The translations under genes and the position numbers were made by a program. Shown here piece by piece: positions 40,352 to 57,253 of a stretch of DNA of 64,000 nucleotides; position 1 is the first letter of the stretch; every line of letters begins with the position of its first letter. Origin of the DNA: Gammaproteobacteria bacterium (GTDB taxonomy: Bacteria > Pseudomonadota > Gammaproteobacteria > SURF-13); NCBI GenBank assembly GCA_016195665.1, contig JACPZD010000001.1, forward strand, positions 282,848-346,847. Direction: 5' to 3'. The notes beneath the pieces are model-generated. The model saw nothing but the letters and a program-made list of their open reading frames with translations. It was not told the DNA's origin and ran no database searches.

Positions 40352-40873
40352 ATGTCCGTAATGCACAAATCGCCCCCCCATCCACTTATAAAGTTCGTCG
40401 TGATGTCGGCCGTGTTCTTTCTTGTCGGCACCGTACACGGCGTGCTGCAGGTGATACACCCGATTCGCGTCTGGCTGGACTCCATCGGCAGCCCCTACGG
40501 CGGACCCGGCCACATGATAGACCCGCTCGCCCACGCCCATATCAACATGGTCGGCGGCGTGGTGCTGCTGGTGATGGCTGCAAGCTATTATTTACTCCCC
40601 GTGTTGTCCAACCGTCCGCTCTATTCCCTGCGGCTGGTGAATCACACCTTCTGGTGGGTCAGCCTCGGGGTGACCGGTTTTTACAGCACGCTGCTGTTCT
40701 TCGGCATCTGGGAAGGTTTTTTGTATCTCGAGCATCCCGCAAAGGTGGAAGAGGCCCATCGTTATTACCCGCCCGTCATCGCGGCGGTTTCCACCGTGAT
40801 GGGTATTGGTTTTTGGTGTTATTTCGCCAATATCTTCTTGACGGCCAGGGATATCTATAAAAGCCGTCCATGA
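40352..40873 (+). CDS. Stand-alone heme-copper oxidase subunit I C-terminal-domain-like membrane protein (paralog 1)
   Basis: 173 aa with 4-5 TM helices. HAHINMVGG...LYSLRLVNHTFWW...ANIFLTARDIY aligns to the last roughly 120 aa of CcoN 51609-53018 (HAHLALLGF...LYSLALANFHFWM...YNMYMTAREGT). That region includes the helix-X HxH heme-ligand motif. Confidence 0.6.
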   Translation: MSVMHKSPPHPLIKFVVMSAVFFLVGTVHGVLQVIHPIRVWLDSIGSPYGGPGHMIDPLAHAHINMVGGVVLLVMAASYYLLPVLSNRPLYSLRLVNHTFWWVSLGVTGFYSTLLFFGIWEGFLYLEHPAKVEEAHRYYPPVIAAVSTVMGIGFWCYFANIFLTARDIYKSRP

Positions 40874-41388
40874 GGCTTGAGTGCAACTGCCCCGGGAGCT
40901 TCCCCGGCTGGCACGATCAGGACATCAATCTAGCCGGACAACTAGTGCATACGGTGTCCGCACCGATGTTTCTACACATGCCGATGGGTTACGAACTGCA
41001 GGTAAAGCGGCAGCAGCAGACGCTGGAACGCCTCAACCTCACCGAACGCTGGCCCGGCTTGGTGCTGATGCGCACCGGCCTGTTGCGCGGAAAGCTCCTG
41101 CGGCTGCTGGAACCCGCGACCTCACCCGCGCGCGGACTGGAGTATCTTCCCAACCCTTTTCAGGTGCGCGGATTTTTACATGAGGGCGGTATCGGCAGCC
41201 TTGCACTAAGCGTGCGCCGGATGCAAAGTGCCCTGGTGCAATCGGGGAAACGGCCGCTGGAGTTGTACCTCAGTCATCTCACCTGCCCGCGCTGCGCGGC
41301 GGCGCGAGGCGGCGAAAAGATTTTATTGCTGCGCCACTGGGTGGAAAGCCCGGCGTTGCTAAAGCGGGTGAACCGGAAGGCGCGCTAG
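40870..41388 (+). CDS. Hypothetical protein (172 aa), translationally coupled to the CcoN-C-terminal-like gene
   Basis: ATGA overlap with the upstream gene; contains a CPRC motif. Family not recognised. Confidence 0.45.
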   Translation: MRLECNCPGSFPGWHDQDINLAGQLVHTVSAPMFLHMPMGYELQVKRQQQTLERLNLTERWPGLVLMRTGLLRGKLLRLLEPATSPARGLEYLPNPFQVRGFLHEGGIGSLALSVRRMQSALVQSGKRPLELYLSHLTCPRCAAARGGEKILLLRHWVESPALLKRVNRKAR

Positions 41389-41905: not shown

Positions 41906-41966
41906 TGTTGAAAAAGGCCATCCTGGGCCTTTTTCAACACGCAAGCTGTTTTTCAACAGCCTGCTA
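41906..41966. repeat. Repeat family B hairpins (copy 2)
   Basis: GTTGAAAAAGGCC-ATCCT-GGGCCTTTTTCAAC then CACGCAAGCTGTTTTTCAACAGCCTGCTA; same units as 28979-29127. Confidence 0.5.
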
Positions 41967-42377
41967 ATCGTTTTTCTCATCGTCGTCCTTGGATTTATCA
42001 CTATCCAGTTTACCCGCACGCTTGGAGCCGTACATGTTGACCATGTAGTATACAAATGCAAATCCCGCCGCAATGTACACCAGGGCCGCGGCGAAGCCCC
42101 AGTCGAACCACGGGCGCGGATGTCCGGGACGGTCTCCCCAAAACGGAAAACTCAAACCCACGGCAATCAGCGTAACGACAACGACCACCGCGACAAACCA
42201 ATACGGGAGATTGCGCTGCGACTCGGGGATTTTCTCGACCAGCTCCCAGTCTTCCAGGCCACGCTTCATGCGGCGTTCCTCGTCCGAGGCATAACCGTAA
42301 TGATCCGGCTTCTCGACGCCCCAATCGGGGGTCCCCGGTTCACTCCCGTTTTTTTCCTCATCCTGCTGCATAGTCAT
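41964..42377 (-). CDS. Hypothetical two-TM membrane protein with acidic termini, downstream of ccoG
   Basis: Two hydrophobic helices (WFVAVVVVVTLIAVGL; AAALVYIAAGFAFVYYMV). Overlaps the ccoG stop by 4 bp. Confidence 0.45.
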   Translation of the reverse strand: MTMQQDEEKNGSEPGTPDWGVEKPDHYGYASDEERRMKRGLEDWELVEKIPESQRNLPYWFVAVVVVVTLIAVGLSFPFWGDRPGHPRPWFDWGFAAALVYIAAGFAFVYYMVNMYGSKRAGKLDSDKSKDDDEKND

Positions 42378-43723
42378 CGTCCATCGCTACTGACAAAATG
42401 CTGTACTCGATAGCTCGCGCGCCAGCCATCTTGAGCCTCTACTTTTACGACAACGGGATACAGCCCCTTGGGTAGCACTTTACCAATGTGCAGATTGAGG
42501 TCCTTGCGTCCGACCGTAGTAAAACCCATTTCACTTCCAGACAATTGATAGCTCGCCGCGGGCAGGCCTTCTACCCGCACCTTCAACAGCGCTTCTTTAT
42601 ACAGTTTGTTGGCAAGACCGATACGGTAGTCCTGTATCGTTCCCTGATTGGTGTCCGCGCGGTAAACGCTGAGGTGGTAGGGCTGATAGCTCAGCAGCCC
42701 CCACGCGAACATCGCTGCGCCCATCACCGTGAGCGGCAGGCTCCACGAAAAACGCCCGAGCAGCGTGCCGAGATTGCTCTTGAGATTACTGCCCTGTTGA
42801 ATTGCGAGTCCTACCAGCTTTGACACCTTGCGTTCGCCAAACTCGAAACTCAACAGCCCGGGCTCACCGTTGCGATATTGCAGCGAGTCGCAGGCGCTGA
42901 TACACGCACCGCAGTTGATGCAACTGTCGTAGGTGCTGGTATTGCGCGGGTCTATCTCCACGGGACACACGGTAAGACAAAAGTTGCAACTCGCGCAGCG
43001 TTCGCCGCGCGCGTCGTCACAGGCGATATGCAGCGTTTGACGGGTCTTGAAGGAGTGCTGCCAAACCCGGTAGATGCACATGAAGCGGCAAAAGAAGTAG
43101 CGCACCACGGCGATGTCCACCAGAATAATCAGCACAAACACCGTGTAAATCCAGTGCAGCGAAGAGGCGAGGCGCGCATCGTCACGCAAGGTGATGAACG
43201 ACAAAACCACGTCGGGCGGATAAAAATACAGCAGAGGGATCAAGGCGAGCAGCAGCGACCCCGCCAGAAACAGGCCGCCCAGCATCAGCCAGTTAATCCA
43301 TTTTTTCTTGCCGGCGGAAACGTGCATCAACTCGCCGGTGAGACTCACCTCGGCGCGTTTGCCCAAAAACCTCTGGGTCATGCGGTTGGCCCACTCGGAG
43401 AAGGTGTTTTGCGGACACACCCAGCCGCAGAAGGCGGTCCCAAGCGTGGAATAGGTCATAACCAGCATACTCGAAACCGCCAGCCAAAACCCCACCACGA
43501 TGAAAAAATCTGAAAACCAGATCTGCCGGTCCAGCACCACAAAGGCGCCGGCGGCGGGGTCTATGCGAAACAGACCGGTGACGGGGATCAATATGGCGGC
43601 CAGCAGCGCCCCCCACTGCACGGCGCGCCGGTAACGGCGCAAACGCACACCGTCGGAGGCGGGACGCCCTGTCTCGACCGTCACCTTGATGCGGTTTAAT
43701 GCCTGGTTGGCGCTTACACTCAT
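42374..43723 (-). CDS. ccoG: cbb3 oxidase accessory protein CcoG/FixG (polyferredoxin membrane protein)
   Basis: 5 TM helices and two ferredoxin-type motifs (CASCNFCLTVCP; CINCGACISAC) followed by an Ig-like C-terminal domain, about 450 aa. Confidence 0.85.
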   Translation of the reverse strand: MSVSANQALNRIKVTVETGRPASDGVRLRRYRRAVQWGALLAAILIPVTGLFRIDPAAGAFVVLDRQIWFSDFFIVVGFWLAVSSMLVMTYSTLGTAFCGWVCPQNTFSEWANRMTQRFLGKRAEVSLTGELMHVSAGKKKWINWLMLGGLFLAGSLLLALIPLLYFYPPDVVLSFITLRDDARLASSLHWIYTVFVLIILVDIAVVRYFFCRFMCIYRVWQHSFKTRQTLHIACDDARGERCASCNFCLTVCPVEIDPRNTSTYDSCINCGACISACDSLQYRNGEPGLLSFEFGERKVSKLVGLAIQQGSNLKSNLGTLLGRFSWSLPLTVMGAAMFAWGLLSYQPYHLSVYRADTNQGTIQDYRIGLANKLYKEALLKVRVEGLPAASYQLSGSEMGFTTVGRKDLNLHIGKVLPKGLYPVVVKVEAQDGWRASYRVQHFVSSDGR

Positions 43724-43755: not shown

Positions 43756-43870
43756 CAGTGAGGCGTAAGGCGTGAGGAGTGAGGTGTATAAAACCGCTTC
43801 CCTCACGCCTCACTCCTCACCCCTCACTTGTTGTAACGCCTCACTCCTCACCGGTTTTCACCCTCACTCC
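43756..43870. repeat. GGTGAGG/CCTCACC heptamer inverted tandem repeat (family C), copy 2
   Basis: GTGAGGCGTAAGGCGTGAGGAGTGAGGTG ... CCTCACGCCTCACTCCTCACCCCTCAC ... CCTCACTCCTCACC. Overlaps the 3' end of the MFS/spermidine-synthase gene. Confidence 0.6.
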
Positions 43871-46591
43871 CCTGTCGAGCGGGCTGACGGCGGTCAGTTG
43901 CGAGCGGTAGCGCTCCGCCTCGGCCGCGTTACCCGCCTCTCGTTCGAGCCGCCACAAGGCGCGCAGCGTCTCGACATGATCGGGACGCAGCTTGAGTATC
44001 GCCTGCAAGGCGGCACGCCTGTCTCTGCCCTTGGCAAGGACCTGCGGCAGCGAGGCATACATCGCATCGGCCAGCGCAAAGGCAATCCAGCGGTCACGGG
44101 GATTCGCCTCATAAGCAAGACGCAGCAACCGCGCACCCTCGTCACTGCCGCGTAGCGTCGCAAGCCAGCCGCGCGTGGCCAACTCATTTCCCGCGTAGCT
44201 GCGCTCAAACTCGGCCATATCTGACATCGCGATATGCATCTCACTCGCGGCCTGTTCCAGTGTCGGGCGTTGTCGCAGCAATTCCTCTATAATGTTTACA
44301 AGATCCATTTCTCCGCTGTAACGGGCACGGGGCAGGCTATACTCAATGCGTGGAGCCCATTCGTCTTGCACCGGGCCGGTTTCGGCGTTTATTCGCCCCC
44401 AGTAACGGCCCAGCCAGGTCCACGCGCCTTCACCGCCGGTCACCCGCGACTGTGTTTCGGTATTCATACGGTTGAGGTTGGCGAGCATGGCCGGCGCACC
44501 ACCTATCGCCTCTGTTGCGCCAACCAGCGCCAGGCGAAATCCGTCCATGAAGATCACGGCGTCCGGATACACGCGCGCGAAGCTGCGCAGCACCACGGCA
44601 AGCGACCCGGCGTCGAACTGATTGAGCGCGATCCATTGTACAAACAGACCGCCCTCATTGAGGCGTGCCTTGGCACGGGCGAACTGCTGTACCGAGAGCA
44701 GCGTGCTGTGACCGACCAGATCGGGGTGAAACAAGTCGCCGACGATGACATCGTAATGCCCGCTGCCGGCGCGCAAAAAACGCCGCGCATCATCGCGCAC
44801 GATGCGGGTAGCGGCAGCGACGCCTTGATTGAGAGGCGCAAACCAGGGCATGGCCTCTATCACCCCCTGAGACACTTCCACGGCGGTGCGTTGCAGATCC
44901 GGAAACGGCAGGGAACCGGACGCCGAGATACCCGTGCCCAAACCGAGAAACAGCACGCTGCGCGGCGCGGGGTGCAGCAACAGCGGCAGCCGCGCCTGGT
45001 TTTGCTGCACGATCACAGCGGCCTGATCGGTCGCCGCATCCATGCGCTGCATGTCGGTCAGCAAGACGCGCTGACCATCGGCGCGTTCCACGACCTGAGT
45101 GATGGAGAGCGCATCCTCGTGACGATACACGTCATGACTCCCCGCCTGCGCCTTGGGCAACAGTTTTGCAATCTCCGGTAACTCCCGCACCGGCCAACCC
45201 AATACTGCGAGTGTGAAAAATCCCGTTGCTACTACAACAGCTTTTAGAGCAGAGCCTCTGACCCACACCAGGCCGCACACCAGCAGCACCGATGCAGCGA
45301 TCAGCAGCGTGCCGGGCGCGCCGAACGCCGGGATCAACACCCCGCCTGCGAGCAGCGCGCCCAGCGCCCCGCCCAGTGCGTTGACGCCATACAACCACGC
45401 GCCGCTTTGTACTACCCACGAATCTGCGACCGAAGGGCGCTCTGACTCCCCTTCTCCCGCTGGGAGAAGGTGGCCCGAAGGGCCGGATGAGGGAGAGACC
45501 GCACAGTTCATGGACATCGTTCGCGACATCGAGGTCGTGCGGTCTCGTCCGGCGCGCGCGCTGATGAGCGGCAGCCACGCGCCCAACGCAAGGGTTACCG
45601 GCAGGGTGAGTGCGGTCAACGCGAGCCCTTGCAGGGTAAGCGCCTGGAGTAGTGAGTCAAACCGACCCTGCTCCGCCCAAGCCGAGATGATGGGCACTCC
45701 CCATAAACTGGTGACTGAAAACAGCACGGCGATGACGGGTAGGGAACTCAACCAGAACCTGTCCCTCATATACCTTGCGAGCAGGCTGCCCAAACCTATG
45801 CCGAGCAAAAATATAGCGAGGATCAGCGCCATAACATACTCGGTGCGCAGCAGAATCATGCCGAACAAGCGTATCCAAGCGATTTCCAGCATCAGAGCCG
45901 CAGCGCCCACACCTGAATAGGCCAACAAGGTTAATAAATCGGGGCGGGCGTCTGTTGTCACACCTTGCGGCGAGCTACGCGCCGGTGCGACGGTGGAGAG
46001 TAGCCCTGCTCCCAGCGCAATCAGCAGTCCTATCGACGCAACGACGTCTATCGCCTGAGCCCAGCCCCAAGCCGGTAACAGCCAAAGCGGTAACAAGGCG
46101 CCCGCGACACCGCCGCAGGTGTTCGCCCCGTAGATCTCGGCGAGTGTCAGCGGAGTGGGCGCCAAGACCTTGAGCATCAGCGGGAAGGTAACGCCCATCG
46201 CCAGAGCAGGAAGCGCCAGCACCAGCAGCGTCACCGCACCCTGCAGCAGGTACCAGCCGTTCAGGTCTAGCTGCACGGCGAGACTGCCGGCTGTGCCGTC
46301 TAGCAGACGCAGTAATTGCGGCAAGGCGAGCGCGAACAGCGCGACGCCCCCTTCCAGCACGGCAACCACGCGGAGTGGATTGCGCAACCTCAAGGATAAC
46401 CGCTCGCCCAGCACGCTCCCAAAACCGAGCCCCAGCATGAACGCCGCCACCGTAACGACGACGCCGAAGATGCTCACCCCGAATTGCACCGTCAACATGC
46501 GCGCCCACAACACTTCGTAAGCGATGCCTGTCATGCCGGAGAAGGCGTAAAGGATCAGTAAGGCCCAAGGCCAGACGCGAGTAGCACGCAT
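43841..46591 (-). CDS. Fused MFS-like membrane domain / spermidine synthase-like (PABS) domain protein with C-terminal TPR repeats
   Basis: About 12 N-terminal TM helices, a central spermidine-synthase-like Rossmann region (VLFLGLGTGISAS...VIVGDLFHPD), and a C-terminal TPR-like helical repeat region. 916 aa. Confidence 0.7.
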   Translation of the reverse strand: MRATRVWPWALLILYAFSGMTGIAYEVLWARMLTVQFGVSIFGVVVTVAAFMLGLGFGSVLGERLSLRLRNPLRVVAVLEGGVALFALALPQLLRLLDGTAGSLAVQLDLNGWYLLQGAVTLLVLALPALAMGVTFPLMLKVLAPTPLTLAEIYGANTCGGVAGALLPLWLLPAWGWAQAIDVVASIGLLIALGAGLLSTVAPARSSPQGVTTDARPDLLTLLAYSGVGAAALMLEIAWIRLFGMILLRTEYVMALILAIFLLGIGLGSLLARYMRDRFWLSSLPVIAVLFSVTSLWGVPIISAWAEQGRFDSLLQALTLQGLALTALTLPVTLALGAWLPLISARAGRDRTTSMSRTMSMNCAVSPSSGPSGHLLPAGEGESERPSVADSWVVQSGAWLYGVNALGGALGALLAGGVLIPAFGAPGTLLIAASVLLVCGLVWVRGSALKAVVVATGFFTLAVLGWPVRELPEIAKLLPKAQAGSHDVYRHEDALSITQVVERADGQRVLLTDMQRMDAATDQAAVIVQQNQARLPLLLHPAPRSVLFLGLGTGISASGSLPFPDLQRTAVEVSQGVIEAMPWFAPLNQGVAAATRIVRDDARRFLRAGSGHYDVIVGDLFHPDLVGHSTLLSVQQFARAKARLNEGGLFVQWIALNQFDAGSLAVVLRSFARVYPDAVIFMDGFRLALVGATEAIGGAPAMLANLNRMNTETQSRVTGGEGAWTWLGRYWGRINAETGPVQDEWAPRIEYSLPRARYSGEMDLVNIIEELLRQRPTLEQAASEMHIAMSDMAEFERSYAGNELATRGWLATLRGSDEGARLLRLAYEANPRDRWIAFALADAMYASLPQVLAKGRDRRAALQAILKLRPDHVETLRALWRLEREAGNAAEAERYRSQLTAVSPLDRGVRVKTGEE

Positions 46592-47280: not shown

Positions 47281-48333
47281 CTAGGGCGCGCTTTGCACGC
47301 AACGAAAACCATAAAAATCCGAGGCGTAATTCGGCAGTGAGTAGTTGCGGTGGTAGGCCGCCGTAGAAAACGGATCACTCTTCCACGACCCGCCGCGCAT
47401 AACCTTGTAGCGCTGATCCGTCACTACCAGGTCTACTACCTTAAGGCTGCGGTCTTCCGCTGAGGTCGCCTTACCGCGCTTGGCCTTGAACAAATCCTCC
47501 GGCGCGGTGCTCCCGGGATACGGCACAAAATCATCCGCCGTCCACTCACTGATATTGCCGGCGAGATCCATCACCCCAAACGGGCTCGCGCCCCGCGGAT
47601 ATGCAGTGACCGGCGTGGTCGCCCCCACGTTGTAGTAAGTATTAAGCCGTGTCCCGTCCATTTCGTTACCCCAGGGCCAGCGCCGTCCGTCCGCCCCGCG
47701 CGCGGCCTTTTCCCACTCCGCTTCGGTCGGCAGGCGCTTGCCCGCCCACTGCGCGTATTTTTCGGCATCATGCCACGACACCATCGTCACCGGGTGCAAC
47801 TCCTTACCCTTGGGGATCATCCCCCCCACCCAGTTTTCCGGTGGGCGATGCCCGGTCGCGACTACAAAGCGGGCATATTGCGCATTCGTCACCGGGTACT
47901 TGTCAATGCGATAGGCAGGCAGCGTCACGCTGTGTTGCGGCCGGTTTTGCTCGTCGGCGCGCTCGTTGTCGGTACCCATGATGAACGGCCCTGCCGGAAT
48001 GAGCAGCGTCGTATCCACTTCAGCCCATTGCGCCGGAGTAAGCAATTGCTCGACTTGTTCAGGCGTGTACAGCCCGACCGCCACTTTCGCCTCACCGGTG
48101 CGCCGCATGGCGTCCTCACCCGCCGCGCGAATGCGCGTGGCTTCTTGCTTCAAGTCGTACGTCGCCTTGCCTCGCATCTCGGCCATGCGGTTGGCGCCGA
48201 GCTGGATTACATGAATACTCCCGCCTATCATGGCCAGCGCCACGCAGGTCACTAAGGTGGCTATCAGATAACGCTTGCGCTTCGCGCGCTCCGCCGCTGT
48301 CAGCGCGGGTCTGCCGGGTAATGTCGTACTCAT
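47281..48333 (-). CDS. Formylglycine-generating-enzyme (FGE/SUMF1) domain protein, membrane anchored (NirV-like)
   Basis: N-terminal TM helix and an FGE-sulfatase domain ending RGGSWKSDPFSTAAYHRNYSLPNYASDFYGFRCV. Confidence 0.8.
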   Translation of the reverse strand: MSTTLPGRPALTAAERAKRKRYLIATLVTCVALAMIGGSIHVIQLGANRMAEMRGKATYDLKQEATRIRAAGEDAMRRTGEAKVAVGLYTPEQVEQLLTPAQWAEVDTTLLIPAGPFIMGTDNERADEQNRPQHSVTLPAYRIDKYPVTNAQYARFVVATGHRPPENWVGGMIPKGKELHPVTMVSWHDAEKYAQWAGKRLPTEAEWEKAARGADGRRWPWGNEMDGTRLNTYYNVGATTPVTAYPRGASPFGVMDLAGNISEWTADDFVPYPGSTAPEDLFKAKRGKATSAEDRSLKVVDLVVTDQRYKVMRGGSWKSDPFSTAAYHRNYSLPNYASDFYGFRCVQSAP

Positions 48334-48346
48334 AACGCCAACCCAA

Positions 48347-48835
48347 TCAAGGCTGGTAGGGCTTGCCGGTCAGCTTTTCGTACTCGGCCTTACGGGTTTC
48401 CACCAGATACCAGTCCTTCACCTTCAGGCTCGCCATATAAGCGGCGAGCGTACGCCTGTCCTGTTCAGGCAGGTGCGCGTAGGAGGGCATACGGTATTGT
48501 TTTTTGAGGCGAGAGGGCAAGATCGTCTGCGGGTCGGGCGCGGAGAAATAGACGTAAAACCACGCTTCATCGCGCAGCGAGCCTATCCCATCCAACGCCG
48601 GCGCGGGCACCGACTCGAACATGTTGCGCACCGTCCAGAGCGTATGGCAATTCTTGCAGCTCAGGCTGCGGTATAAATCTGAGCCCTTGCGTGCAAGTTC
48701 GGGAGTAGCGGTACTGTAAAACGGGATGCCGGGGTCCTGCTGCGCGGGCAGACCTAATTGCCACAAACCCCTGCCAACCGCATACAGTACCAGCGCGGCG
48801 ATGATCCCGAGCACCCATTTCTCACCTCCGCGCAT
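48347..48835 (-). CDS. Membrane-anchored mono-heme c-type cytochrome
   Basis: N-terminal TM helix and one CKNCH heme-binding motif. Confidence 0.7.
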   Translation of the reverse strand: MRGGEKWVLGIIAALVLYAVGRGLWQLGLPAQQDPGIPFYSTATPELARKGSDLYRSLSCKNCHTLWTVRNMFESVPAPALDGIGSLRDEAWFYVYFSAPDPQTILPSRLKKQYRMPSYAHLPEQDRRTLAAYMASLKVKDWYLVETRKAEYEKLTGKPYQP

Positions 48836-49694: not shown

Positions 49695-49820
49695 TTATTT
49701 TTTCTTCTTATACAGGTTAGGTGCGTAACGGTCTACGATAAAGCTGTAGAGCACTGGCACCAGCAAGGCCACTAACGTTACTCCGGCCAGAACCAGCGGC
49801 GGATTGTCCAGATCTATCAT
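49695..49820 (-). CDS. Hypothetical 41-aa single-TM microprotein
   Basis: MIDLDNPPLVLAGVTLVALLVPVLYSFIVDRYAPNLYKKKK. ATGA overlap with the upstream CcoP-like gene. Confidence 0.3.
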   Translation of the reverse strand: MIDLDNPPLVLAGVTLVALLVPVLYSFIVDRYAPNLYKKKK

Positions 49821-50503
49821 GCTACTCTCCTCTTTTGACCATGCACGCTCAACTCGGCAATCTCGGCGTCGCTCAACATGCGCTCGTTACCATGACGCGG
49901 TTGCACCGTATAGGGTGGCAGCCGCTTTACTACTATCATTACCGCCAGGCAGAAATAGATCACGTAAAAGATGTCGATAGTATATCCCTTATCCCACCAG
50001 GGCTGTTGACGCACAATGCTGCCGTCGGGACGGACATTCCCTTCAAAGTTGGCAAGGACGAGCCTATCGCCCAGAACGGTATAGTCTTCCAGAATGGCGT
50101 TTTTCGCCTGCAGGTCCTGGATGAGCGGCTTCAATACACGCAGGTCATCCATTTCTACGGGGTGTTGTATCAGTTGAGTCTTGTGCTTTGATTTACTACC
50201 CACCTCTTTGACAAGATAGTCCATGCGGGCCTGATCATTCGGCAGGGCCTGCACTTCGGGGCTATCCATCGCAGCGATATACTCCTGATAGATCGCTGCG
50301 GTAGGGCGCTGGCCCCACAAGGGAAAGGTAATAAGGTATGCGGATATGATGGTCAGCACCAGCAGATACACCACCGGCTGAGGCAGACGGTTGTTGTTCT
50401 CGGTGATGCCGCCCAGGCTTTCGGACTCCCATATCTCCATGGCGGTCTTGTTGCTTTCATCATCCGTGAGGGTACGCAGCGGGTTGTCAAATCTCCAGGC
50501 CAT
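49817..50503 (-). CDS. CcoP-like membrane anchor lacking c-type heme domains
   Basis: N-terminus (ESLGGITENNNRLPQPVVYLLVLTIISAYLITFPLW) resembles the CcoP/FixP N-terminal TM region (D-G-I-x-E-x-x-N-P-L-P). No CxxCH motif occurs anywhere in the 228 aa. Confidence 0.5.
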   Translation of the reverse strand: MAWRFDNPLRTLTDDESNKTAMEIWESESLGGITENNNRLPQPVVYLLVLTIISAYLITFPLWGQRPTAAIYQEYIAAMDSPEVQALPNDQARMDYLVKEVGSKSKHKTQLIQHPVEMDDLRVLKPLIQDLQAKNAILEDYTVLGDRLVLANFEGNVRPDGSIVRQQPWWDKGYTIDIFYVIYFCLAVMIVVKRLPPYTVQPRHGNERMLSDAEIAELSVHGQKRRVA

Positions 50504-50514
50504 GACACATCCTC

Positions 50515-51465
50515 CTACTTTAAGTTCAAGACAAAGTCTATCAAGTAACGAATCTCGCTGTTGCTCGCATAGGCGGGCACCTCGGGCGGCGTCACGCGCT
50601 CGCCACGGCGATATTCCAGAAACTCCCTGCGCCAGCCCGCATAGTTAATCTTGTTGCCGTTGGCGTCGGTCTCGCCCCACAGGTAATCAAAGCGCGGCAT
50701 GATGGAGTGCGGCTGCACCAGGCGTGGATTGAAGAAGTGCATCATCATCCACTCCTTGGAGGAGTTGCGCGAACCGACATGCAGCAGGTCGGGCGCCTTG
50801 CGGTCGGAGCCAAATGCGGTGGGTGACTCACCGTTGAAGTCGCCCAGATAAGGCGGTGCGCCGAAGTATTGGAAGTCCTGAGTCTGCTCGGGCAGTAAAG
50901 TGTGGCACCACCAGCAGCCCTCCCGCACGAAGATGACCTTGCCCGAACCGGCATAGTGGGCGTTGGCGTCACCGGCCGCGGTGAGCACCGCATCAGGCGT
51001 CCAGCCGTGGGTGACGCTGGCGTTCTCTATATAGGGGTAAGATTTACCCTCGTAGTCGCCGTTCTTAACCAGGAACACGGCGCCCTGCGTCTCGCTTGCC
51101 TCATGGATTTTACCCTGTTCAACGCTCAACTCCGCACTGCCGGCACCGAGCACCTTCGGATGCTTGATGCCGCTGGGGAAGGGTGCGCCGGGACGGAATA
51201 CGTAAGCGTACACCGGGTCCATGTCCGCGCCCGAGGCCGGGTCCTTATTCAACAAAACCTTGGTGGGTGCGGCGTGACCCCTGAGGCGCGGATCGCTGAA
51301 GCTAAAGCCGCTGTTGGCCCCGTAGGTCAATTGCTTGTCGAGCGCGAGCGCCGTAGAGCCCACCGAGAAGATGTTGAAGCTCGGCATCACCAGCGTGATG
51401 AACATGGACAAGCTGAGTGCTGCACCGAACATCACGGCGCCGATTCTATACTCTCTAAAGGCCAC
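50515..51465 (-). CDS. ccoO: cbb3-type oxidase mono-heme subunit II (CcoO/FixO-like), N-terminally extended
   Basis: GTG start with AGGGAG RBS. CWWCH heme site and the CcoO signature ...PDLLHVGSRNSSKEWMMMHFFNPRLVQPHSIMPRFDYL. 316 aa versus the usual 200-240. Confidence 0.75.
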   Translation of the reverse strand: MAFREYRIGAVMFGAALSLSMFITLVMPSFNIFSVGSTALALDKQLTYGANSGFSFSDPRLRGHAAPTKVLLNKDPASGADMDPVYAYVFRPGAPFPSGIKHPKVLGAGSAELSVEQGKIHEASETQGAVFLVKNGDYEGKSYPYIENASVTHGWTPDAVLTAAGDANAHYAGSGKVIFVREGCWWCHTLLPEQTQDFQYFGAPPYLGDFNGESPTAFGSDRKAPDLLHVGSRNSSKEWMMMHFFNPRLVQPHSIMPRFDYLWGETDANGNKINYAGWRREFLEYRRGERVTPPEVPAYASNSEIRYLIDFVLNLK

Positions 51466-51608: not shown

Positions 51609-53018
51609 CTATCGTTCGTAGGCCAGCTCATGCACCATGCGGCCGGCCGGCACTATGGTGCCCTCACGCGCCGTCATATACATGTTATACAGCCACACGC
51701 AGTTACCGAGGAATACCAAGGTACCGCCAAACCAGCGCGCGATCATGTACGGGTGCTCGGCGACCACGATATCAATGTACGGCACCTCGTAAATCTTGCC
51801 CGCGCCCTGAATCAGGCCCGCGATGGTCATTGAGATCCAGTAGATCGAAAAGCCGATCAAAAGCATCCAGAAGTGGAAGTTGGCGAGGGCCAGGGAATAG
51901 AGCTTACGCTTCATGATCATCTGCAGGCCGTAGTACACGGCGGCCACCTCAATGAAGGTGGAGAAGCCGAGCAGTGCGAGGTGCGCGTGCGCCACGATCC
52001 AGCCGGTGCCGTGGATGTACCAGTTGATCGAGCGTGTCTGCTGGAAGCCGCCCTGCATGTTGAGCGGAATGGCGAGCAGCACGCCGGTCACCGTGAAGCG
52101 CACCTCGATGTTCTCCACGAACATGTTCCACTTGCCCTGCATGGTAAGCAGGATATTGGATACGAAGGCGATCGCAGGCACCAGGATCAGCACGCCCTCC
52201 ACCGAGGCGAATGACTTCAGCCACTCGGGCAACGGCGCGGACATCAGGTGATGCGCGGCGGGCGTGGAGTAGAAGATCACGATGGACCAGAAGTGCAAGT
52301 GGCCGATACGATGCGAGTACAGCGGGTTGCCGGTGATTTTGGGGATGGTGTAGTAGGCAATGGCCGCGGCCACGGGGGTGATCCACAAACCGAGAATGTT
52401 GTGTGCATTCCACCAGGTGAGGTAGGCCTCGGTCAGGCCGGTGAGGTGGAAGTACTCCGGCAGGTTGCCTACCAGCAACACGATCATGAGCATGAAGATT
52501 GAACCGGCGAAGAACCAGTTGGTGGTGTATATGCCCTGGGTACGGCGTTTGGCGATGGTCATCCAGACATTGAGCGACACGGGGATCAGCACGCCAAACA
52601 GCAGGATGAGATCTATGGGATAGATAAAGTCGGAGTATTCACGCCCGGAGGTCATTCCCATCCACATGGTGATCAGGCCCACAGCCAGGCCGATATTCCA
52701 GTTCATGCAGCTCCACAGCGCGAGCTTTTCCGACCACAACTTGGTATTGCCAAGCGCCGGGGTGATGTACATCATCGCGGCGGCGAAGGCCATCGAGATC
52801 CAGCCGAAGATCACCGCCATTACGTGCACCTGGCGCATCTTGCCGAAGGCGAAGTACTCATAGCCGGTTACCCAGTCGGGGAAGGCCAGCTTGGCGGCAT
52901 TGAAAGAGCCCAAACCCGTGCCTATGATAAACCAGACGATGGCCGAAAAAGAAAAGAACAGCGTCGCGGTGCCCGGCGGGATGTCTTCGCTCTTGGAAAA
53001 CAGATATTTGGTCAACAT
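51609..53018 (-). CDS. ccoN: C-family heme-copper oxidase catalytic subunit I (CcoN/FixN)
   Basis: 12 TM helices. TWWNAHNILG (helix VI), HHLMS (CuB His pair), HAHLALLG (helix X heme ligands). 469 aa. Confidence 0.85.
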   Translation of the reverse strand: MLTKYLFSKSEDIPPGTATLFFSFSAIVWFIIGTGLGSFNAAKLAFPDWVTGYEYFAFGKMRQVHVMAVIFGWISMAFAAAMMYITPALGNTKLWSEKLALWSCMNWNIGLAVGLITMWMGMTSGREYSDFIYPIDLILLFGVLIPVSLNVWMTIAKRRTQGIYTTNWFFAGSIFMLMIVLLVGNLPEYFHLTGLTEAYLTWWNAHNILGLWITPVAAAIAYYTIPKITGNPLYSHRIGHLHFWSIVIFYSTPAAHHLMSAPLPEWLKSFASVEGVLILVPAIAFVSNILLTMQGKWNMFVENIEVRFTVTGVLLAIPLNMQGGFQQTRSINWYIHGTGWIVAHAHLALLGFSTFIEVAAVYYGLQMIMKRKLYSLALANFHFWMLLIGFSIYWISMTIAGLIQGAGKIYEVPYIDIVVAEHPYMIARWFGGTLVFLGNCVWLYNMYMTAREGTIVPAGRMVHELAYER

Positions 53019-53114: not shown

Positions 53115-53273
53115 TTACTTTTTTGCCGGCATCGCGCAGCACGGCTTGATCAGCCCGCGGTTACCGACCTTGCCGCACACCTTGCAGGGGATCATCAGAT
53201 ACCATGCTAGCCACATGCTGGAGAAGGCGGCGACCATGCTAAAAACTGCGGCGATTATTGCTAAAAGACCCAT
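53115..53273 (-). CDS. Hypothetical 52-aa TM microprotein with CxxC...CC motif
   Basis: MGLLAIIAAVFSMVAAFSSMWLAWYLMIPCKVCGKVGNRGLIKPCCAMPAKK; GGAGC RBS. Immediately upstream of ccoN. Confidence 0.35.
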   Translation of the reverse strand: MGLLAIIAAVFSMVAAFSSMWLAWYLMIPCKVCGKVGNRGLIKPCCAMPAKK

Positions 53274-53339
53274 TTGCTAGCTCCGTGCGCTGTTAGTTTC
53301 GACTGCATAAATTTAGGGGTACCTTGCTGCAAGACAGCC

Positions 53340-53633
53340 TTAGTGATGACCGCCGCCCTGGCTCACTTTGGACATCTTATCATGACCATATATGGCGGAC
53401 AATAAGATCCATATAAAGGCGAAACCGAACACCAACATGGTCCAGGTCATAAAGCCGTTGAAGTAACCGAACGGATTGTAAGAGTTCCAGCCGCCCCAGT
53501 CGCCAAAGGCGCCACGGCCCAGATTGGCCATGAGATAAATACCGAACACGCTGCCGTTACCCATCCCCACCACCATGCCGACCACCAGGCTAAGTATCAG
53601 GGATTTTCTCACCATGCTGACCGACTTCGCCAT
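53340..53633 (-). CDS. Hypothetical small membrane protein (97 aa, Gly-rich, 3 TM, C-terminal His tail)
   Basis: Hydrophobic helices and a GGGHH C-terminus; no family recognised. Confidence 0.45.
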   Translation of the reverse strand: MAKSVSMVRKSLILSLVVGMVVGMGNGSVFGIYLMANLGRGAFGDWGGWNSYNPFGYFNGFMTWTMLVFGFAFIWILLSAIYGHDKMSKVSQGGGHH

Positions 53634-53745
53634 ATCTCTCTCCGCTCTTGGACTTGAATTAAATGTTCACAAAGCGCCCAAACCAGGGGCTTGCCGTTAA
53701 TTTGTATAATTTACATCAGGTCGCGTTATAATTTCAACACCTGAT

Positions 53746-53946
53746 ATGAAAGAAATTGTCGTTTATTTAATCGCGGCCATCGCCGGGCTGACCATACTGG
53801 GGTATTCGGTGCATATGCTGATCGGCGGGCTGGTCAGCAGGGCCACGGAATACACTGTGATTGCGCTCGCCGTTTTAATTGGGGTAGCTGTGCTTGGCTT
53901 TCTCGCCTGGGATGTGGTGAAGAGGCGGGTGAGAAGTGAGGAGTGA
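53746..53946 (+). CDS. Hypothetical 66-aa two-TM microprotein
   Basis: MKEIVVYLIAAIAGLTILGYSV... two helices. The 3' end runs into the heptamer repeat. Confidence 0.35.
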   Translation: MKEIVVYLIAAIAGLTILGYSVHMLIGGLVSRATEYTVIALAVLIGVAVLGFLAWDVVKRRVRSEE

Positions 53947-54046
53947 GGGGTGAGGGGTGAGGGGTGAGGGGTGATAGCTTTTTACTCCTTACTCCTCACT
54001 CCTTACGCCTAACTCCTCACCTTTTTCTAACTCCTCGCCCCTCACA
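53928..54046. repeat. GGTGAGG/CCTCACC heptamer inverted tandem repeat (family C), copy 3
   Basis: (GTGAGGG)x4-5 ... TTTTTACTCCTTACTCCTCACTCCTTACGCCTAACTCCTCACC...CCTCAC, between convergent genes. Confidence 0.6.
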
Positions 54047-54047
54047 G

Positions 54048-54503
54048 CTACTTGTAAACCGTCAAGGCCTCTCGCACCTCTTTGAATGTCGCGGCATCTT
54101 GAAACTGTCCGCGGTGGAAGATGAATTGCCTCGGTTGGCCCAAGACGTCCTTGCCGGAAAGCCCGATGGATTTCCCTTGGGTGTCGCTGTAATAACGGAC
54201 GTCTTTGACCAGTTGCACTCTCTCGCCGTTACGCAACTCCAGGCGCACCTGCTCGCGGCTGATTTCGATCGCCACCGGGGAGGTGGGCAGCCACATCAGG
54301 CGGGTTTTAAGAATACGGTTGGCGCCCGCGATGAAGAAAAACGAGGCCATAAAAAAAAGGATATAGGCCACGGACGGGTTCTCGCCATACCCCAGCTTGA
54401 GACCGAGCAGCCCGAGCACGACGACGGTGGGCACATATAACAGCAAATCCCACAACACTCCCTGCCGGTCCTGCCGCAGGACGTAGCGGGTGACGCCGCT
54501 CAT
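54048..54503 (-). CDS. Membrane protein with bacterial PH-like (YdbS/bPH_2-like) cytoplasmic domain
   Basis: Two N-terminal TM helices followed by a roughly 80-aa beta-rich domain. Confidence 0.45.
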   Translation of the reverse strand: MSGVTRYVLRQDRQGVLWDLLLYVPTVVVLGLLGLKLGYGENPSVAYILFFMASFFFIAGANRILKTRLMWLPTSPVAIEISREQVRLELRNGERVQLVKDVRYYSDTQGKSIGLSGKDVLGQPRQFIFHRGQFQDAATFKEVREALTVYK

Positions 54504-55006
54504 CGCTTAGCGGTTGCCGCGGGGAGCACGCGGCTGAGCTGCGCCTCGAGTTCGCCATACATGACCCGTCCGGCCTGTACATAACGCACCGTCTGTTTTT
54601 GATCTATCACGTAGGTCCAGGGGTCGCCCATTATGCCGAAGGCCTTGAAGGCCTGCGGGTTTTGGTACTGGTCTATGTGCATAAACAGCACCCGCGGCTC
54701 ATACTTGCTCATCATGGCCTTGAGCATCTGGAGCTGCTGATCACAGGGCGTGCAGTGACCGGGGGTGGCGAAGGCGAGCACGATGGGCTTGCCGGTCTTG
54801 AGCGCCTGATCGAGCGAGTATTGATACATGCGCGCGTCGGGATAGCGGTAGGTGGTGATCTTGCTAAAGTCGCCGCCCACGTCGGCCAGGGTCTTGGTGG
54901 CGATCGGCGGGGCCTGCATGCCGACGCCCACCCTCGGCCCAAAGTCGCAGGCCGTCAAAAGAACTACGAGGCAGAGCGTGAAGGCTCCGTAGCGCGCGCG
55001 CATCAT
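54500..55006 (-). CDS. TlpA-like thiol:disulfide oxidoreductase (thioredoxin fold, CxxC), probable lipoprotein
   Basis: Signal/lipobox LVVLLTAC. Thioredoxin-fold active site LAFATPGHCTPC. Confidence 0.7.
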   Translation of the reverse strand: MMRARYGAFTLCLVVLLTACDFGPRVGVGMQAPPIATKTLADVGGDFSKITTYRYPDARMYQYSLDQALKTGKPIVLAFATPGHCTPCDQQLQMLKAMMSKYEPRVLFMHIDQYQNPQAFKAFGIMGDPWTYVIDQKQTVRYVQAGRVMYGELEAQLSRVLPAATAKR

Positions 55007-55530
55007 GGCTTTGCGCTCTGCGGCTCGCTCCAGCCGCGCGCGGTGCGGAACAGGTTGTAGGCCCAGATGAGGTTGGAGAGCAGCACCAAACTGCCGAACA
55101 TCCCCACCGAGATCATAAACGGACGCACGATTTTATTGACCTCGTCAATGTCCATGGTTTCGCTGGCCAGACCGCCCAAACTCCCCGCCATGACAAAGGA
55201 CAGGACCATGCCGAGCAGGCCGAAGTTGTGGACCCAAAAATGAATGTTGACCAGGCGCAGGCTATAGATGTTGCGCCGGACGATGCGCGGCACGATGTAA
55301 TACACCGCCGCGAATATCGCCATCTCGACCCAGCCCAGCAGGTTCAGGTGGCCGTGGCCGAGCATGATGAGATGGGCGTGCGGCCTGTGGTTGATGAAGT
55401 CGCGCAGTTTGGGGAGCATGCCGACCACTACGCCCCAGGAGAAGCCGATGATGCTGTAAATCACGCAGGCCGCAATAAACCATAAAATGTAACGGCGGTA
55501 CTGTGTGTCCTGGCCGAAATTCTCATTCAC
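55003..55530 (-). CDS. Stand-alone heme-copper oxidase subunit I C-terminal-domain-like membrane protein (paralog 2)
   Basis: 175 aa. HAHLIMLGHGHLNLLGW...IYSLRLVNIHFWV...LIWAYNLFRTARGW is homologous to paralog 1 and to the CcoN C-terminus. Overlaps neighbours by 4 bp on each side. Confidence 0.6.
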   Translation of the reverse strand: MNENFGQDTQYRRYILWFIAACVIYSIIGFSWGVVVGMLPKLRDFINHRPHAHLIMLGHGHLNLLGWVEMAIFAAVYYIVPRIVRRNIYSLRLVNIHFWVHNFGLLGMVLSFVMAGSLGGLASETMDIDEVNKIVRPFMISVGMFGSLVLLSNLIWAYNLFRTARGWSEPQSAKP

Positions 55531-56141
55531 GGGGAGGGCGCCTTTTCTGTCGCGTCTCCCTGTTGCCCGGGGGGTTTGGTGCGGATGTCCTGGTATTTAT
55601 CCTTCCAGCCTTCAGGGGCCCACATCTTGACCATGCTGTCTATGAATCCTGAGCTTTCCGGCGGCGGCTCGCGCGCCATAGACGAACCTTGTTCCGCCTT
55701 GAGTTCGGAGAGAAACATGGCGATGTCGTGGATGTCTGCGGAGGGAAGGGCAGTAGTGTAGCCCGCTTCTCTGCCGGGGGCGTGATCCATGGTCGTCGTT
55801 CCATAAGTCAACTCCGGCCGCCTCAGGAAATTCTCTATCCACTCCGCGCTGCGGCGCGAACCGATACCGTCCAGTACGAGGCCGTTGTTGGTGCCGTTGC
55901 GCATCGCGCGGTGGCAGGCGGTGCAATTGGCTTCGCGGAATAATTTTGAGCCGCGCAGGCCTTCCGCGGTGGAATCAAAGGAGCTGCGCGAGGTGAACAT
56001 CGGCTCCTTCATGTGGCTGCGCACGGTCTCGAGCACGATGTAACCGATCACCGCCAACACCAGAAACGCACCGAATACGGCAAACAGCACGCGTTCGCCG
56101 GGTTTGAGGGATTGTTTAGGCTTCGTCGTAGGCAGTGTCAC
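55527..56141 (-). CDS. Membrane-anchored mono-heme c-type cytochrome
   Basis: TM helix VLFAVFGAFLVLAVIGYIV and one CTACH motif. Confidence 0.7.
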   Translation of the reverse strand: MTLPTTKPKQSLKPGERVLFAVFGAFLVLAVIGYIVLETVRSHMKEPMFTSRSSFDSTAEGLRGSKLFREANCTACHRAMRNGTNNGLVLDGIGSRRSAEWIENFLRRPELTYGTTTMDHAPGREAGYTTALPSADIHDIAMFLSELKAEQGSSMAREPPPESSGFIDSMVKMWAPEGWKDKYQDIRTKPPGQQGDATEKAPSP

Positions 56142-56165: not shown

Positions 56166-56203
56166 AGAAAAACAAAAGGGCGGGGATGTTTCCCCCGCCC
56201 TTA
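56166..56203 (-). terminator. Intrinsic terminator after the diheme cytochrome c gene
   Basis: Hairpin AAGGGCGGGG-ATGTTT-CCCCGCCCTT followed on the minus strand by TTTTGTTTTT. Confidence 0.55.
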
Positions 56204-56266: not shown

Positions 56267-57253
56267 CTATTCGTGCGCGGCGCCGGCGGTATTCGGCGGT
56301 ATTTGGTGAGGCTGACGCGAATTGCCCATGGAGATAGGCGGCGCGCTGGTCAGGTAGGCGGCGACATTGTAAATGTCTTCATCCTTGAGCTTGCTCGCCA
56401 CGGCGCGCATCTGCGCCAGCGGGTCGTTGGCGCGGCTGCCATCCTTCCATTTCTTCAACTGATTTACCAGATAGACGTAACGCTGTCCGCCGATGACGGG
56501 GTAGATCGGCAGGGCACCGCGCCCGTTGAACTGGTGGCAGCTGCTGCAGGCCGGTACGCCTTGGGCCGGAATACCATAGAGCACGATGCCCTTTCCGAGA
56601 TGACGCTCACCGACCGGTACGGTGCCGGCCGTCTTGATCTCGTCCAGATTAGAGGCCGAGGCGAGCGCATCGTGATGCACGCTGGACTCATAGGCGGCGA
56701 TGTCGGCCTTGTCCTGATCGGAGAGGGCCTTGGCGACACCGTTCATGACACCCATGGTGGTGTCGGTCCGGAGGTCTGCGGCGAACTCATAGAGCTGCTT
56801 TCTGATGTAAGTAAAGCCTTGGCCGGCCAACCGGGGGGTACCCATATTGTCATCGCCCAGACCTTGCTCACCGTGGCAGGACATGCAGGGCGGGGCCTCG
56901 CCTTTCCCTTCGTTGAAGATCTTTTTCCCGGCCTCGAAATTACCGACCAGCCTGAGCGCCTCGCCCGGCATGGGCATAGGAGGCGGAGTGGCGGGGGCTA
57001 CGACCTCCGGTGGGGTGGGGGTTGCCATGGCCTCCGGATTTTCCGCGGGGACGGGGGGGGCTACTACCGCCGGAGCGGGCGCAATTTCACCCGCCGGGGC
57101 CGAACCGGCGGATTCCGGGGCTGCCGGTGCTTGCTCAACGGCCGGGGCAGACGTGACGCCCGGATCTTCTGACCAAGCTTGATTTGCCGCGACCAAGGCC
57201 AAGGCCGCAAGCGATGCCTTAATTAACCGACGCATAATGAATCCTTCCTCCAT
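56267..57253 (-). CDS. Diheme cytochrome c4-like protein with Pro/Ala-rich linker
   Basis: Signal peptide; two heme sites CMSCH and CSSCH; low-complexity PAPA-rich N-terminal linker. Confidence 0.8.
   Translation of the reverse strand: MEEGFIMRRLIKASLAALALVAANQAWSEDPGVTSAPAVEQAPAAPESAGSAPAGEIAPAPAVVAPPVPAENPEAMATPTPPEVVAPATPPPMPMPGEALRLVGNFEAGKKIFNEGKGEAPPCMSCHGEQGLGDDNMGTPRLAGQGFTYIRKQLYEFAADLRTDTTMGVMNGVAKALSDQDKADIAAYESSVHHDALASASNLDEIKTAGTVPVGERHLGKGIVLYGIPAQGVPACSSCHQFNGRGALPIYPVIGGQRYVYLVNQLKKWKDGSRANDPLAQMRAVASKLKDEDIYNVAAYLTSAPPISMGNSRQPHQIPPNTAGAAHE

Follow-up and report, generated by a model that had tools for sequence, protein, structure and literature searches.

A free-standing homologue of the last four helices of CcoN, encoded between a monoheme cytochrome c and a redoxin in a gammaproteobacterial genome

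In this study, we analysed a 64,000-nucleotide stretch of a gammaproteobacterial genome (GenBank assembly GCA_016195665.1, contig JACPZD010000001.1, positions 282,848 to 346,847; hereafter the window) and focused on a small gene that encodes a 175-amino-acid (aa) membrane protein (Table 1). This protein, hereafter the module, represents in free-standing form the four-helix unit that is present three times in subunit I of the heme-copper oxidases (HCO), and it is closest to helices IX-XII of CcoN. We describe its homology, fold, conservation and synteny and the purifying selection that acts on it, together with relatives that consist of one, two or three modules and a fusion of modules to cytochrome c. 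New here are these relatives with one, two or three HxH modules, one of them with a fused heme-c domain, and the detection of three repeats in CcoN by a profile of the module. The module is an unexplained conserved part of a proposed respiratory branch for extracellular electron uptake. The corresponding gene cassette is highly expressed in the electrode-oxidising Candidatus (Ca.) Tenderia and is also found in a metagenome-assembled genome (MAG) of the Zetaproteobacteria and in Betaproteobacteria including Ca. Nitrotoga.

The module as a repeat of oxidase subunit I

A preliminary description of the window had proposed homology between the 175-aa protein and the C-terminus of CcoN. The reading frames that it had named lie on the minus strand where it had placed them, the peptides that it had quoted occur in them, and the homology was confirmed by several methods. 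The Pfam model COX1 (PF00115) matched the module with 64.7 bits (cut-off 34.8, E=9.4e-18), which makes the module a member of this family by gathering score, with residues 10-140 covering the C-terminal part of the profile only (positions 303-428 of 436). A profile of the module family matched the CcoN chains 3mk7_A and 9g6b_A in the PDB (E ~1e-18). The AlphaFold2 (AF2) model of the module (pLDDT 93) consists of four transmembrane (TM) helices and one short loop helix, and it superposes on CcoN helices IX-XII with TMq 0.80-0.83 and a root-mean-square deviation (rmsd) of 1.6-1.7 Å at 24% identity. In addition to this fold, the module shares with CcoN of P. stutzeri (3MK7) the HxH motif of helix X, a His at position -8 and the motifs 'YS..L...HFW' and 'YN'.

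The module differs from CcoN in having four of the twelve helices and in the family-specific invariant residues C22, E69, H101 and N102. A catalytic HCO subunit I has twelve core TM helices and six His ligands, located in helix II, helix VI, helix VII (two) and helix X (two). Of these, the four-helix module has the helix-X pair H59/H61 only, and in alignments with CcoN it lacks the CuB ligands, the helix-II His and the cross-link Tyr. Thus, the module cannot reduce O2 alone, in agreement with the earlier view that it is not an oxidase proper. The NCBIfam model TIGR00780, an equivalog model for CcoN, gave 57.2 bits with the module, far below its cut-off of 583. Therefore, the name 'cbb3-type cytochrome c oxidase subunit I', under which homologues of the module are annotated by their sources, is an over-call, and it misleads metabolic inference from metagenomes. 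Two other family assignments were tried and rejected, namely DUF2871 (PF11070, 17.5 bits, threshold 27.4) and DUF996 (PF06195, 20.5 bits, threshold 31.3). A few module homologues carry a precomputed PF11070 hit, and a distant relationship of the module to DUF2871 is possible on sequence grounds.

In three independent alignments, H59 and H61 of the 'GHGH' motif in the 175-aa protein fell on the CcoN residues that ligate heme b3 and heme b, respectively. The preliminary description had pointed to extra His residues that distinguish the module from its homologue in the window, paralog 1 (25-27% identity), and the 'HAH' pair H51/H53 was considered here as the counterpart of the CcoN heme ligands. 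This pair was rejected, since all three alignments put H59/H61 there instead. H51 is indeed conserved (79/81 module sequences), but it matches the His at -8 that CcoN has too, a position that we take to be equivalent to the Mg-site histidine of the A-type oxidases. H53 is variable (N, D or H among the 81 sequences), and H48 varies too among aligned homologues.

In all 81 module sequences, C22, R43, H59, H61, N63, E69, H97, H101, N102, P137 and N159 are invariant. In the second TM helix (TM2), which carries the HxH motif, conservation extends all around the helix (helical moment of entropy 0.06, compared with 0.45 for TM3), as is expected of a helix that is buried by partners or cofactors. Since helix positions i and i+2 face opposite sides, H59 and H61 could not share one ligand, and on this structural argument partners beyond the four-helix unit would be needed.

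The match to CcoN is limited to its last third, as might be expected if the module were a decaying remnant of a duplicated ccoN or one half of a split ccoN. This explanation can be dismissed with near certainty. The ratio of nonsynonymous to synonymous substitution rates (dN/dS) between the module and close relatives lies at 0.08-0.12, below the values of the other three operon genes. A word-indexed search found 601 homologues, nearly all of 169-184 aa among the 120 listed, and a module relative is encoded in 407 species genomes. The dN/dS of ~0.1 and the family size exclude a pseudogene and bear out the earlier claim of a functional, selected family. A split ccoN was excluded by a search of all six-frame open reading frames (ORFs) of the window with the module profile, which returned the full-length CcoN and two stand-alone modules only, with neither a partner containing helices I-VIII nor a third module.

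Applied to the 469-aa CcoN of the window, the stand-alone-module profile detected three near-full-length domains, at residues 21-156, 167-298 and 304-455 (i-Evalues 1.7e-11, 1.2e-9 and 2.3e-29, respectively). The first His column of the profile corresponds in CcoN to the heme-b ligand of helix II, the CuB ligand of helix VI and the heme-b3 ligand of helix X. By this alignment, heme b of CcoN is held by the 'first-His' of repeat 1 and the 'second-His' of repeat 3.

Proteins with more than one module were found in an exhaustive phmmer search of 1.84 billion representatives, which gave 613 hits with the module as query. Among the best 150 of these hits were canonical oxidases, stand-alone proteins of 120-215 aa (58 of them), a protein with clearly two modules (P0152, 273 aa) and about 22 proteins of 331-440 aa, 13 of which have two or three HxH[IL]xL[LV]G motifs. 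Fusions of the module to a thioredoxin were not present among the 150 best representatives. Tandem relatives with two and three modules have HxH in each module, and the three repeats of P0127 and P0136 are 33-43% identical to one another and 25-39% identical to the window protein (E 1e-10 to 1e-21). Triple-module proteins with 12 TM helices and ~400-420 aa (P0127, P0136, P0138, P0185) are apparently undescribed. They resemble the window protein in a module with HxH[IL]xL[LV]G[WF]V, and differ from it in that three modules are fused, in their other neighbours and in the lack of E69, H101 and N102. P0185 (558 aa; locus L093, 855-2531) combines a signal peptide, a monoheme CxxCH domain and three HxH modules in one chain.

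It is conceivable, although we consider it rather unlikely, that the 175-aa protein and paralog 1 are living single-copy versions of the unit that was triplicated into HCO subunit I. Such a protein would form a 12-helix (near-)symmetric complex with bis-His hemes at the protomer interfaces and a tethered cytochrome c as donor, a 'proto-oxidase' still used by iron- and electrode-oxidising and by nitrite-oxidising bacteria, and the two- and three-module relatives would be intermediates of the fusion. In the literature searched, we found nothing relevant on an HCO triplication or internal-repeat origin or on DUF2871. The one-, two- and three-module proteins and the cytochrome-c fusion make the old pseudo-threefold symmetry of oxidase subunit I testable by sequence and biochemistry, and they raise the question whether a single repeat is able to form oligomers, to bind heme and to pass on electrons. 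The interest of the module lies mainly in this series and in its implications for the origin and architecture of the oxidase.

Some observations concern the triple-module proteins themselves. A family of 390-420 aa (P0127, P0136, P0138, P0139, P0160, P0247; loci L081-L083, L091) has three tandem HxH four-helix modules and gives partial COX1 matches only in Pfam; no description of it was found in the literature searched. Its recurrent neighbours are FeS_assembly_P, PCP_red/CGGC or PCP_red-NIR_SIR-Fer4, ScdA_N, hemerythrin-DUF438-PAS_10 and, once, Sco1/SenC, which suggests a role related to NO/O2 or to iron centres. The P0185 gene adjoins genes for FeS_assembly_P and DUF2249.

Gene order, conservation and expression

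The module gene is flanked by the gene of a membrane-anchored monoheme cytochrome c upstream and by that of a thioredoxin-fold lipoprotein (the redoxin) downstream, and the gene of a 151-aa protein with two TM helices completes the four-gene unit. The overlaps that had led to the proposal of translational coupling are real. The module/redoxin overlap is ATGA, as described earlier, and so is the redoxin/151-aa overlap, but the cytochrome c/module overlap is GTGA.

Gene order was compared in a set of 80 genome loci, taken from the 407 species genomes with a module relative, and presence was counted over those loci whose contig leaves room for the neighbour. The redoxin lies next to the module in 78/78 loci, the 151-aa protein is present in all 77 loci that could be scored, and the monoheme cytochrome c is present in 74 of 75. 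The synteny on which the preliminary description had made its proposal depend is thus conserved. A diheme cytochrome is encoded upstream in 69/71 loci. Within the four-gene unit, successive genes are separated by medians of -1, -4 and +3 nt, and the median distance from the diheme gene is +202 nt. The same gene order is found on the complete betaproteobacterial chromosome OW818637.1, and the closest public genome contig for the window is DATMXC010000197.1.

A 469-aa-type CcoN follows within 6 kb downstream in 52/62 loci. In ten loci (L011-L015, L018, L019, L028, L030, L037), the five-gene unit from the diheme cytochrome to the 151-aa protein is present with no CcoN within 6 kb downstream, which indicates that the unit is separable from the oxidase. 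In nine of these ten loci, no other cassette gene was seen in the 6 kb downstream. L037 has two small cassette genes again at ~4 kb downstream, and the unit of L014 is followed by unrelated ORFs. A compact distant version of the cassette is found in locus L088 (5.85 kb), which encodes a cytochrome c, a 58-aa protein, a paralog-1-type module, an FGE-like protein, a 175-type module, an HCTQC lipoprotein, a 57-aa protein and a CcoG-like protein, with no full CcoN on that contig. Identities to the window are 42% for the 175-type module, 33% for the overlapping HCTQC lipoprotein, 45% for the FGE-like protein and 31% for the CcoG-like protein. These genes are followed on L088 by a 280-aa fragment with an N-terminal CTVCH motif, which might be a Cyc2-like cytochrome-porin. 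Several other distant single modules lie on contigs so short that they gave little information on gene context.

The proteins encoded beside the module were assigned as follows. The 204-aa cytochrome c had correctly been described as membrane-anchored and monoheme, with one CxxCH motif and an N-terminal TM helix. In the PDB it shows weak similarity to the heme domain of ActA from alternative complex III (ACIII) and to NorC (E=0.015 for NorC), and the FixO/CcoO models of Pfam and NCBIfam did not match it. The pair of module and cytochrome c resembles CcoN/NorB with CcoO/NorC in that a monoheme cytochrome c anchored by a single TM helix is encoded beside, and co-translated with, an HCO-type membrane partner. 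In contrast to these systems, the cytochrome gene comes first in the window unit, the membrane partner has no catalytic centre and the cytochrome has no FixO/CcoO match.

The redoxin has an exported thioredoxin fold with a CxxC motif, as had been recognised, whereas its label as TlpA-like did not hold. None of the curated TlpA, ResA or DsbE models matched it at cut-off (dsbE 18.9 bits vs 123, ResA 18.2 vs 170), and the nearest PDB sequences are plain thioredoxins. It shares with TlpA, ResA and CcmG the extracytoplasmic thioredoxin fold with CxxC and the location among cytochrome and oxidase genes, but its active site is HCTxC, not WCxxC. The motif [GA]HCTxC, in which His replaces the usual Trp, is present in 80/80 orthologues, and a lipobox was found on the sampled N-termini.

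The 151-aa protein had been described as a PH-domain membrane protein. Its AF2 model (pLDDT 90.8) has a PH-like topology, and the top Foldseek matches include SPT16/SSRP1 PH and SNT-2 PTB domains (prob ~0.9), but at E values of 0.04-0.2 these matches are not significant. Membership in bPH/PH families was rejected by sequence, as no PH family of Pfam matched the window protein or its 45 orthologues (E<=1), and these 46 sequences matched no Pfam family at all. The 151-aa family has 448 homologues, Ca. Nitrotoga among them.

The gene unit had already been noticed and labelled and was never analysed or characterised. In Fig. 2B of Eddie et al. (2022; bioRxiv 10.1101/2022.05.06.490989), the order is a diheme cytochrome, a monoheme cytochrome, a 'truncated CcoN', a thioredoxin, ..., CcoN, CcoO, ..., CcoG, ..., and a second 'truncated CcoN'. 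This arrangement was reported to be conserved in Tenderiales and neighbouring orders and to have been seen earlier in freshwater iron oxidisers. No function was assigned to it beyond 'a sort of alternative complex IV', and several cassette proteins were suggested to facilitate assembly (Eddie et al., 2022). The window protein fits the 'truncated CcoN' orthogroup, as it is a COX1-C-terminal protein of the size in question (~170-180 aa), whose gene has that of a monoheme cytochrome c on one side and a thioredoxin-like gene on the other and lies downstream of a diheme cytochrome. While the gene order of Tenderia is the same as that of the window, the work on it consists of the label and the 'alternative complex IV' speculation, with no residue analysis, repeat relationship or function.

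The phrase 'truncated CcoN' occurred in a single paper in the literature searched, and no discussion of the module gene was found in the comparative-genomics papers on iron-oxidising bacteria that were consulted. A conserved cassette with cyc1 and two other cytochromes was described for Zetaproteobacteria (McAllister et al., 2020; PMC7029218), which we do not equate with the cassette of the window. In Ca. Tenderia electrophaga, Tel_00405, labelled Cyc1, is located directly upstream of the same gene set, and Tel_00415 (ALP51724) is the truncated CcoN (PMC5371394; 10.1101/2022.05.06.490989). By position, the 328-aa diheme cytochrome of the window is the equivalent of this Cyc1. In the Ca. Tenderia MAG loci L053, L055 and L062 the module is ~60% identical to that of the window and the synteny is the same; the window is from a different gammaproteobacterial lineage than Ca. 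Tenderia.

Expression data are available for Tenderia (Eddie et al., 2017, Table S1; PMC5371394). The log2 normalised expression is ~12.8 for Cyc1, 10.1 for the monoheme cytochrome, 9.6 for the truncated CcoN, 10.6 for the thioredoxin, 13.3 for CcoN and 12.9 for the CcoO-like gene, and for no gene in this list does expression change significantly with electrode potential (PMC5371394). According to these values, mRNA of the small operon is roughly 6-12-fold below that of CcoN/CcoO. In the window, an intrinsic-terminator-like hairpin lies between the diheme gene and the four-gene operon, in agreement with the Tenderia data, in which the normalised mRNA drops roughly 6-9-fold in the genes that follow. 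Since terminator-like sites in the region are in total not above the shuffled expectation, we regard this hairpin as a putative terminator.

These data bear on the possibility that the module is a stoichiometric extra 4-TM subunit that docks on the neighbouring CcoN. Its gene is close to the oxidase, and cbb3 oxidases bind small extra TM subunits, e.g., CcoM at helices VIII/IX. However, the Tenderia mRNA is ~12-fold below that of CcoN/CcoO, the module is encoded in a separate operon behind the terminator-like hairpin, it occurs away from the oxidase in 10/62 loci, and an extra subunit would give no reason for the heme-ligand His to stay invariant. Thus, a structural subunit of this kind is very improbable.

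Possible roles of the module

Heme binding, an oligomeric state with its stoichiometry, electron transfer and a physiological role are what we infer for the module, and we tentatively prefer a reading that falls somewhat short of being probable. Rather than an oxidase, the module may be an oligomeric protein that binds heme b and partners the cytochrome c, and it may serve as a low-abundance accessory module of the Cyc1-CcoNO branch. The protomers would associate, most simply three of them, as in the 12-helix three-module relatives. A b-type heme would be held between protomers near the periplasmic face, with H59 from one protomer and H61 from the adjacent one as its ligands, comparable to heme b in CcoN, which is held by the equivalent His of repeats 1 and 3. 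A homo-oligomer of modules would then reproduce the heme-b geometry of CcoN at every interface. The co-translated membrane-tethered monoheme cytochrome c would act as the periplasmic redox partner, as CcoO and NorC do for CcoN and NorB. Together with this cytochrome, the HCTxC lipoprotein and the 2-TM protein, the module might constitute a low-abundance accessory redox module, and this would belong to the Cyc1-to-CcoNO electron-uptake cassette of litho- and electro-autotrophic Proteobacteria.

We prefer this heme-b oligomer because the HxH motif is invariant, TM2 is conserved all round, the cytochrome c is obligatory, multi-module and cytochrome-fused relatives exist and the i/i+2 geometry calls for partners. 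The persistence of the intact unit in the 10/62 loci without an adjacent oxidase and the low dN/dS of the module also speak for a heme-b redox module.

Several points weigh against it. The roughly 6-12-fold lower mRNA of the Tenderia operon would be expected of an assembly factor and of a minor complex alike, and genes of the biogenesis type (CcoG-like, FGE-like, redoxin) are present in the cluster. The Sco1/SenC copper chaperone beside one triple-module relative hints at copper and not at heme alone. Simple heme binding leaves the invariant C22, H97, H101, N102 and E69 unexplained. Moreover, the predicted hemes would all lie at one membrane depth, so that the model offers no obvious energy-conserving reaction.

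The preliminary description had interpreted the arrangement as a unit for cofactor delivery or redox maturation rather than an oxidase. In its most explicit form, the module would be a biogenesis factor for the neighbouring 'distal' CcoN/CcoO. It would mimic CcoN helices IX-XII and either hold heme b transiently or dock on nascent CcoN for the insertion of heme b/b3 (and indirectly CuB), while the lipoprotein would keep periplasmic cysteines of apocytochromes or chaperones reduced. This explanation fits the adjacency of CcoN/CcoO in 52/62 loci, the sub-stoichiometric module mRNA of Tenderia (~12-fold below CcoN; PMC5371394) and the assembly help suggested for several cassette proteins (10.1101/2022.05.06.490989). 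In addition, CcoG-like, FGE-like and redoxin genes co-cluster with the module, even in the compact distant locus L088. However, the unit is also found apart from the oxidase (10/62 loci), but never without its cytochrome c and the Cyc1-like gene. The distant 12-TM triple-module relatives, one of them with a fused heme-c (P0185), resemble enzymes or cytochromes and not chaperones. Furthermore, cbb3 oxidases have no Cys-ligated copper that would require a redoxin. To our knowledge, the known cbb3 assembly factors (CcoS, CcoH, CcoG, CcoI, SenC) are not homologues of CcoN, which also counts against a biogenesis factor. The invariant ligand His, the obligatory cytochrome c and the fused relative favour a redox-active heme protein over a maturation unit, and we regard a role in biogenesis as on the whole less likely, though as the main and a serious alternative.

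The residues that are not explained by heme binding might instead belong to a relay for copper or protons. An intramembrane polar ladder formed by C22, H97-x3-H101, N102 and E69, and then the periplasmic H59/H61/H51, would pass Cu(I) across or along the membrane to the Sco-like HCTxC lipoprotein for CuB assembly. In line with this, the five residues of the ladder are invariant, all 80 redoxin orthologues have HCTxC with His for the usual Trp, the triple-module protein P0127 adjoins Sco1/SenC, and a CcoG-like gene is part of the cluster. CcoG is a cupric reductase. Nevertheless, such a relay is improbable, as the module has neither Met-rich nor CxxC metal motifs, C22 and H97 are lost in a 42%-identical relative (P0125), paralog 1 lacks the ladder (C22, E69, H101 and N102), and the Sco neighbour was seen only once.

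The oxidase and the wider cassette

The features of the region are listed in Table 1. The 469-aa CcoN downstream of the unit has all six cofactor His and the cross-link Tyr (helix VII, six residues before HH) in alignment with P. stutzeri CcoN (3mk7_A, E=2.6e-63). By these residues and the adjoining CcoO-like gene, it is a C-family (cbb3-type) O2 reductase. A diheme CcoP was not seen beside this CcoN in Pfam searches, which returned a FixP_N-like protein only. Thus, this oxidase type apparently lacks a diheme CcoP, and the soluble Cyc1-like diheme cytochrome may replace it. A FixP_N-like segment was also noticed by eye, with no Pfam support, in a 137-aa protein (41964-42377, minus strand).

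Table 1. Coordinates of the module gene and of other features in the window (positions counted from the first nucleotide of the window).
Feature	Position	Strand	Length	Remarks
Diheme c-type cytochrome	56267-57253	-	328 aa	Signal peptide, Pro/Ala-rich linker, two CxxCH; Pfam Cytochrom_C in two stretches
Intrinsic-terminator-like hairpin	56176-56202	-		11-bp stem, 8 GC pairs, T-run; between diheme gene and four-gene operon
Membrane-anchored monoheme cytochrome c	55527-56141	-	204 aa	GTG start, N-terminal TM helix, CTACH; Pfam Cytochrom_C E=2.4e-9
Free-standing 4-TM module	55003-55530	-	175 aa	GTG start; homologous to CcoN helices IX-XII
Thioredoxin-fold lipoprotein (redoxin)	54500-55006	-	168 aa	Lipobox LTAC, GHCTPC; Pfam AhpC-TSA/Thioredoxin/Redoxin above cut-off
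2-TM protein	54048-54503	-	151 aa	Two TM helices after a short N-terminal strand, then a six-stranded beta domain with a C-terminal helix (PH-like topology, predicted cytoplasmic)
Two heptamer arrays	53927-54017			(GGGTGAG)x6.9 and (TTACTCC)x5.1, partly complementary
Three small membrane-protein genes	53115-53946		66, 97 and 52 aa	66 aa 53746-53946 (+); 97 aa 53340-53633 (-); 52 aa 53115-53273 (-); tblastn synteny in most loci
Complete C-family oxidase subunit I, CcoN-like	51609-53018	-	469 aa	~2 kb downstream of the unit
CcoO-like monoheme subunit	50515-51465	-	316 aa	Long N-terminal extension; Pfam FixO E=2.7e-17, NCBIfam ccoO partial match
FixP N-terminal membrane domain protein	49817-50503	-	228 aa	No heme domains; Pfam FixP_N 24.4 bits, just under 24.9; syntenic in most loci
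Second membrane-anchored monoheme cytochrome c	48347-48835	-	162 aa	Pfam; ~25-30% identical paralogue of the 204-aa cytochrome (tblastn cross-hits)
Membrane-anchored FGE-sulfatase-domain protein	47281-48333	-	350 aa	Pfam E=9e-59
Polytopic membrane protein	43841-46591	-	916 aa	Weak spermidine-synthase-like domain, TPR-like C-terminus; between FGE-like and CcoG-like genes
CcoG/FixG-like polyferredoxin membrane protein	42374-43723	-	449 aa	Pfam Fer4_5/Fer4_18
Paralog 1, second free-standing 4-TM HxH module	40352-40873	+	173 aa	25-27% identical to the 175-aa protein
Partner of paralog 1	40870-41388	+	172 aa	ATGA overlap; borderline Pfam Bact_hydrolase, 28.1 bits vs 27

Paralog 1 and its 172-aa partner recur as a pair in locus L077. 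The FGE-like protein is conserved in the cassette (L088, L090), and its homologue in L088 is encoded between the two module types. Compared with human FGE, the 350-aa protein seems by its sequence to lack the catalytic Cys pair and is probably not an FGE proper. The two heptamer arrays are located between the convergent genes of the 151-aa and 66-aa proteins and overlap the 3' end of the 66-aa gene. They fold into a long hairpin (minimum free energy -42.9 kcal/mol, z=-3.4), which is a possible bidirectional terminator.

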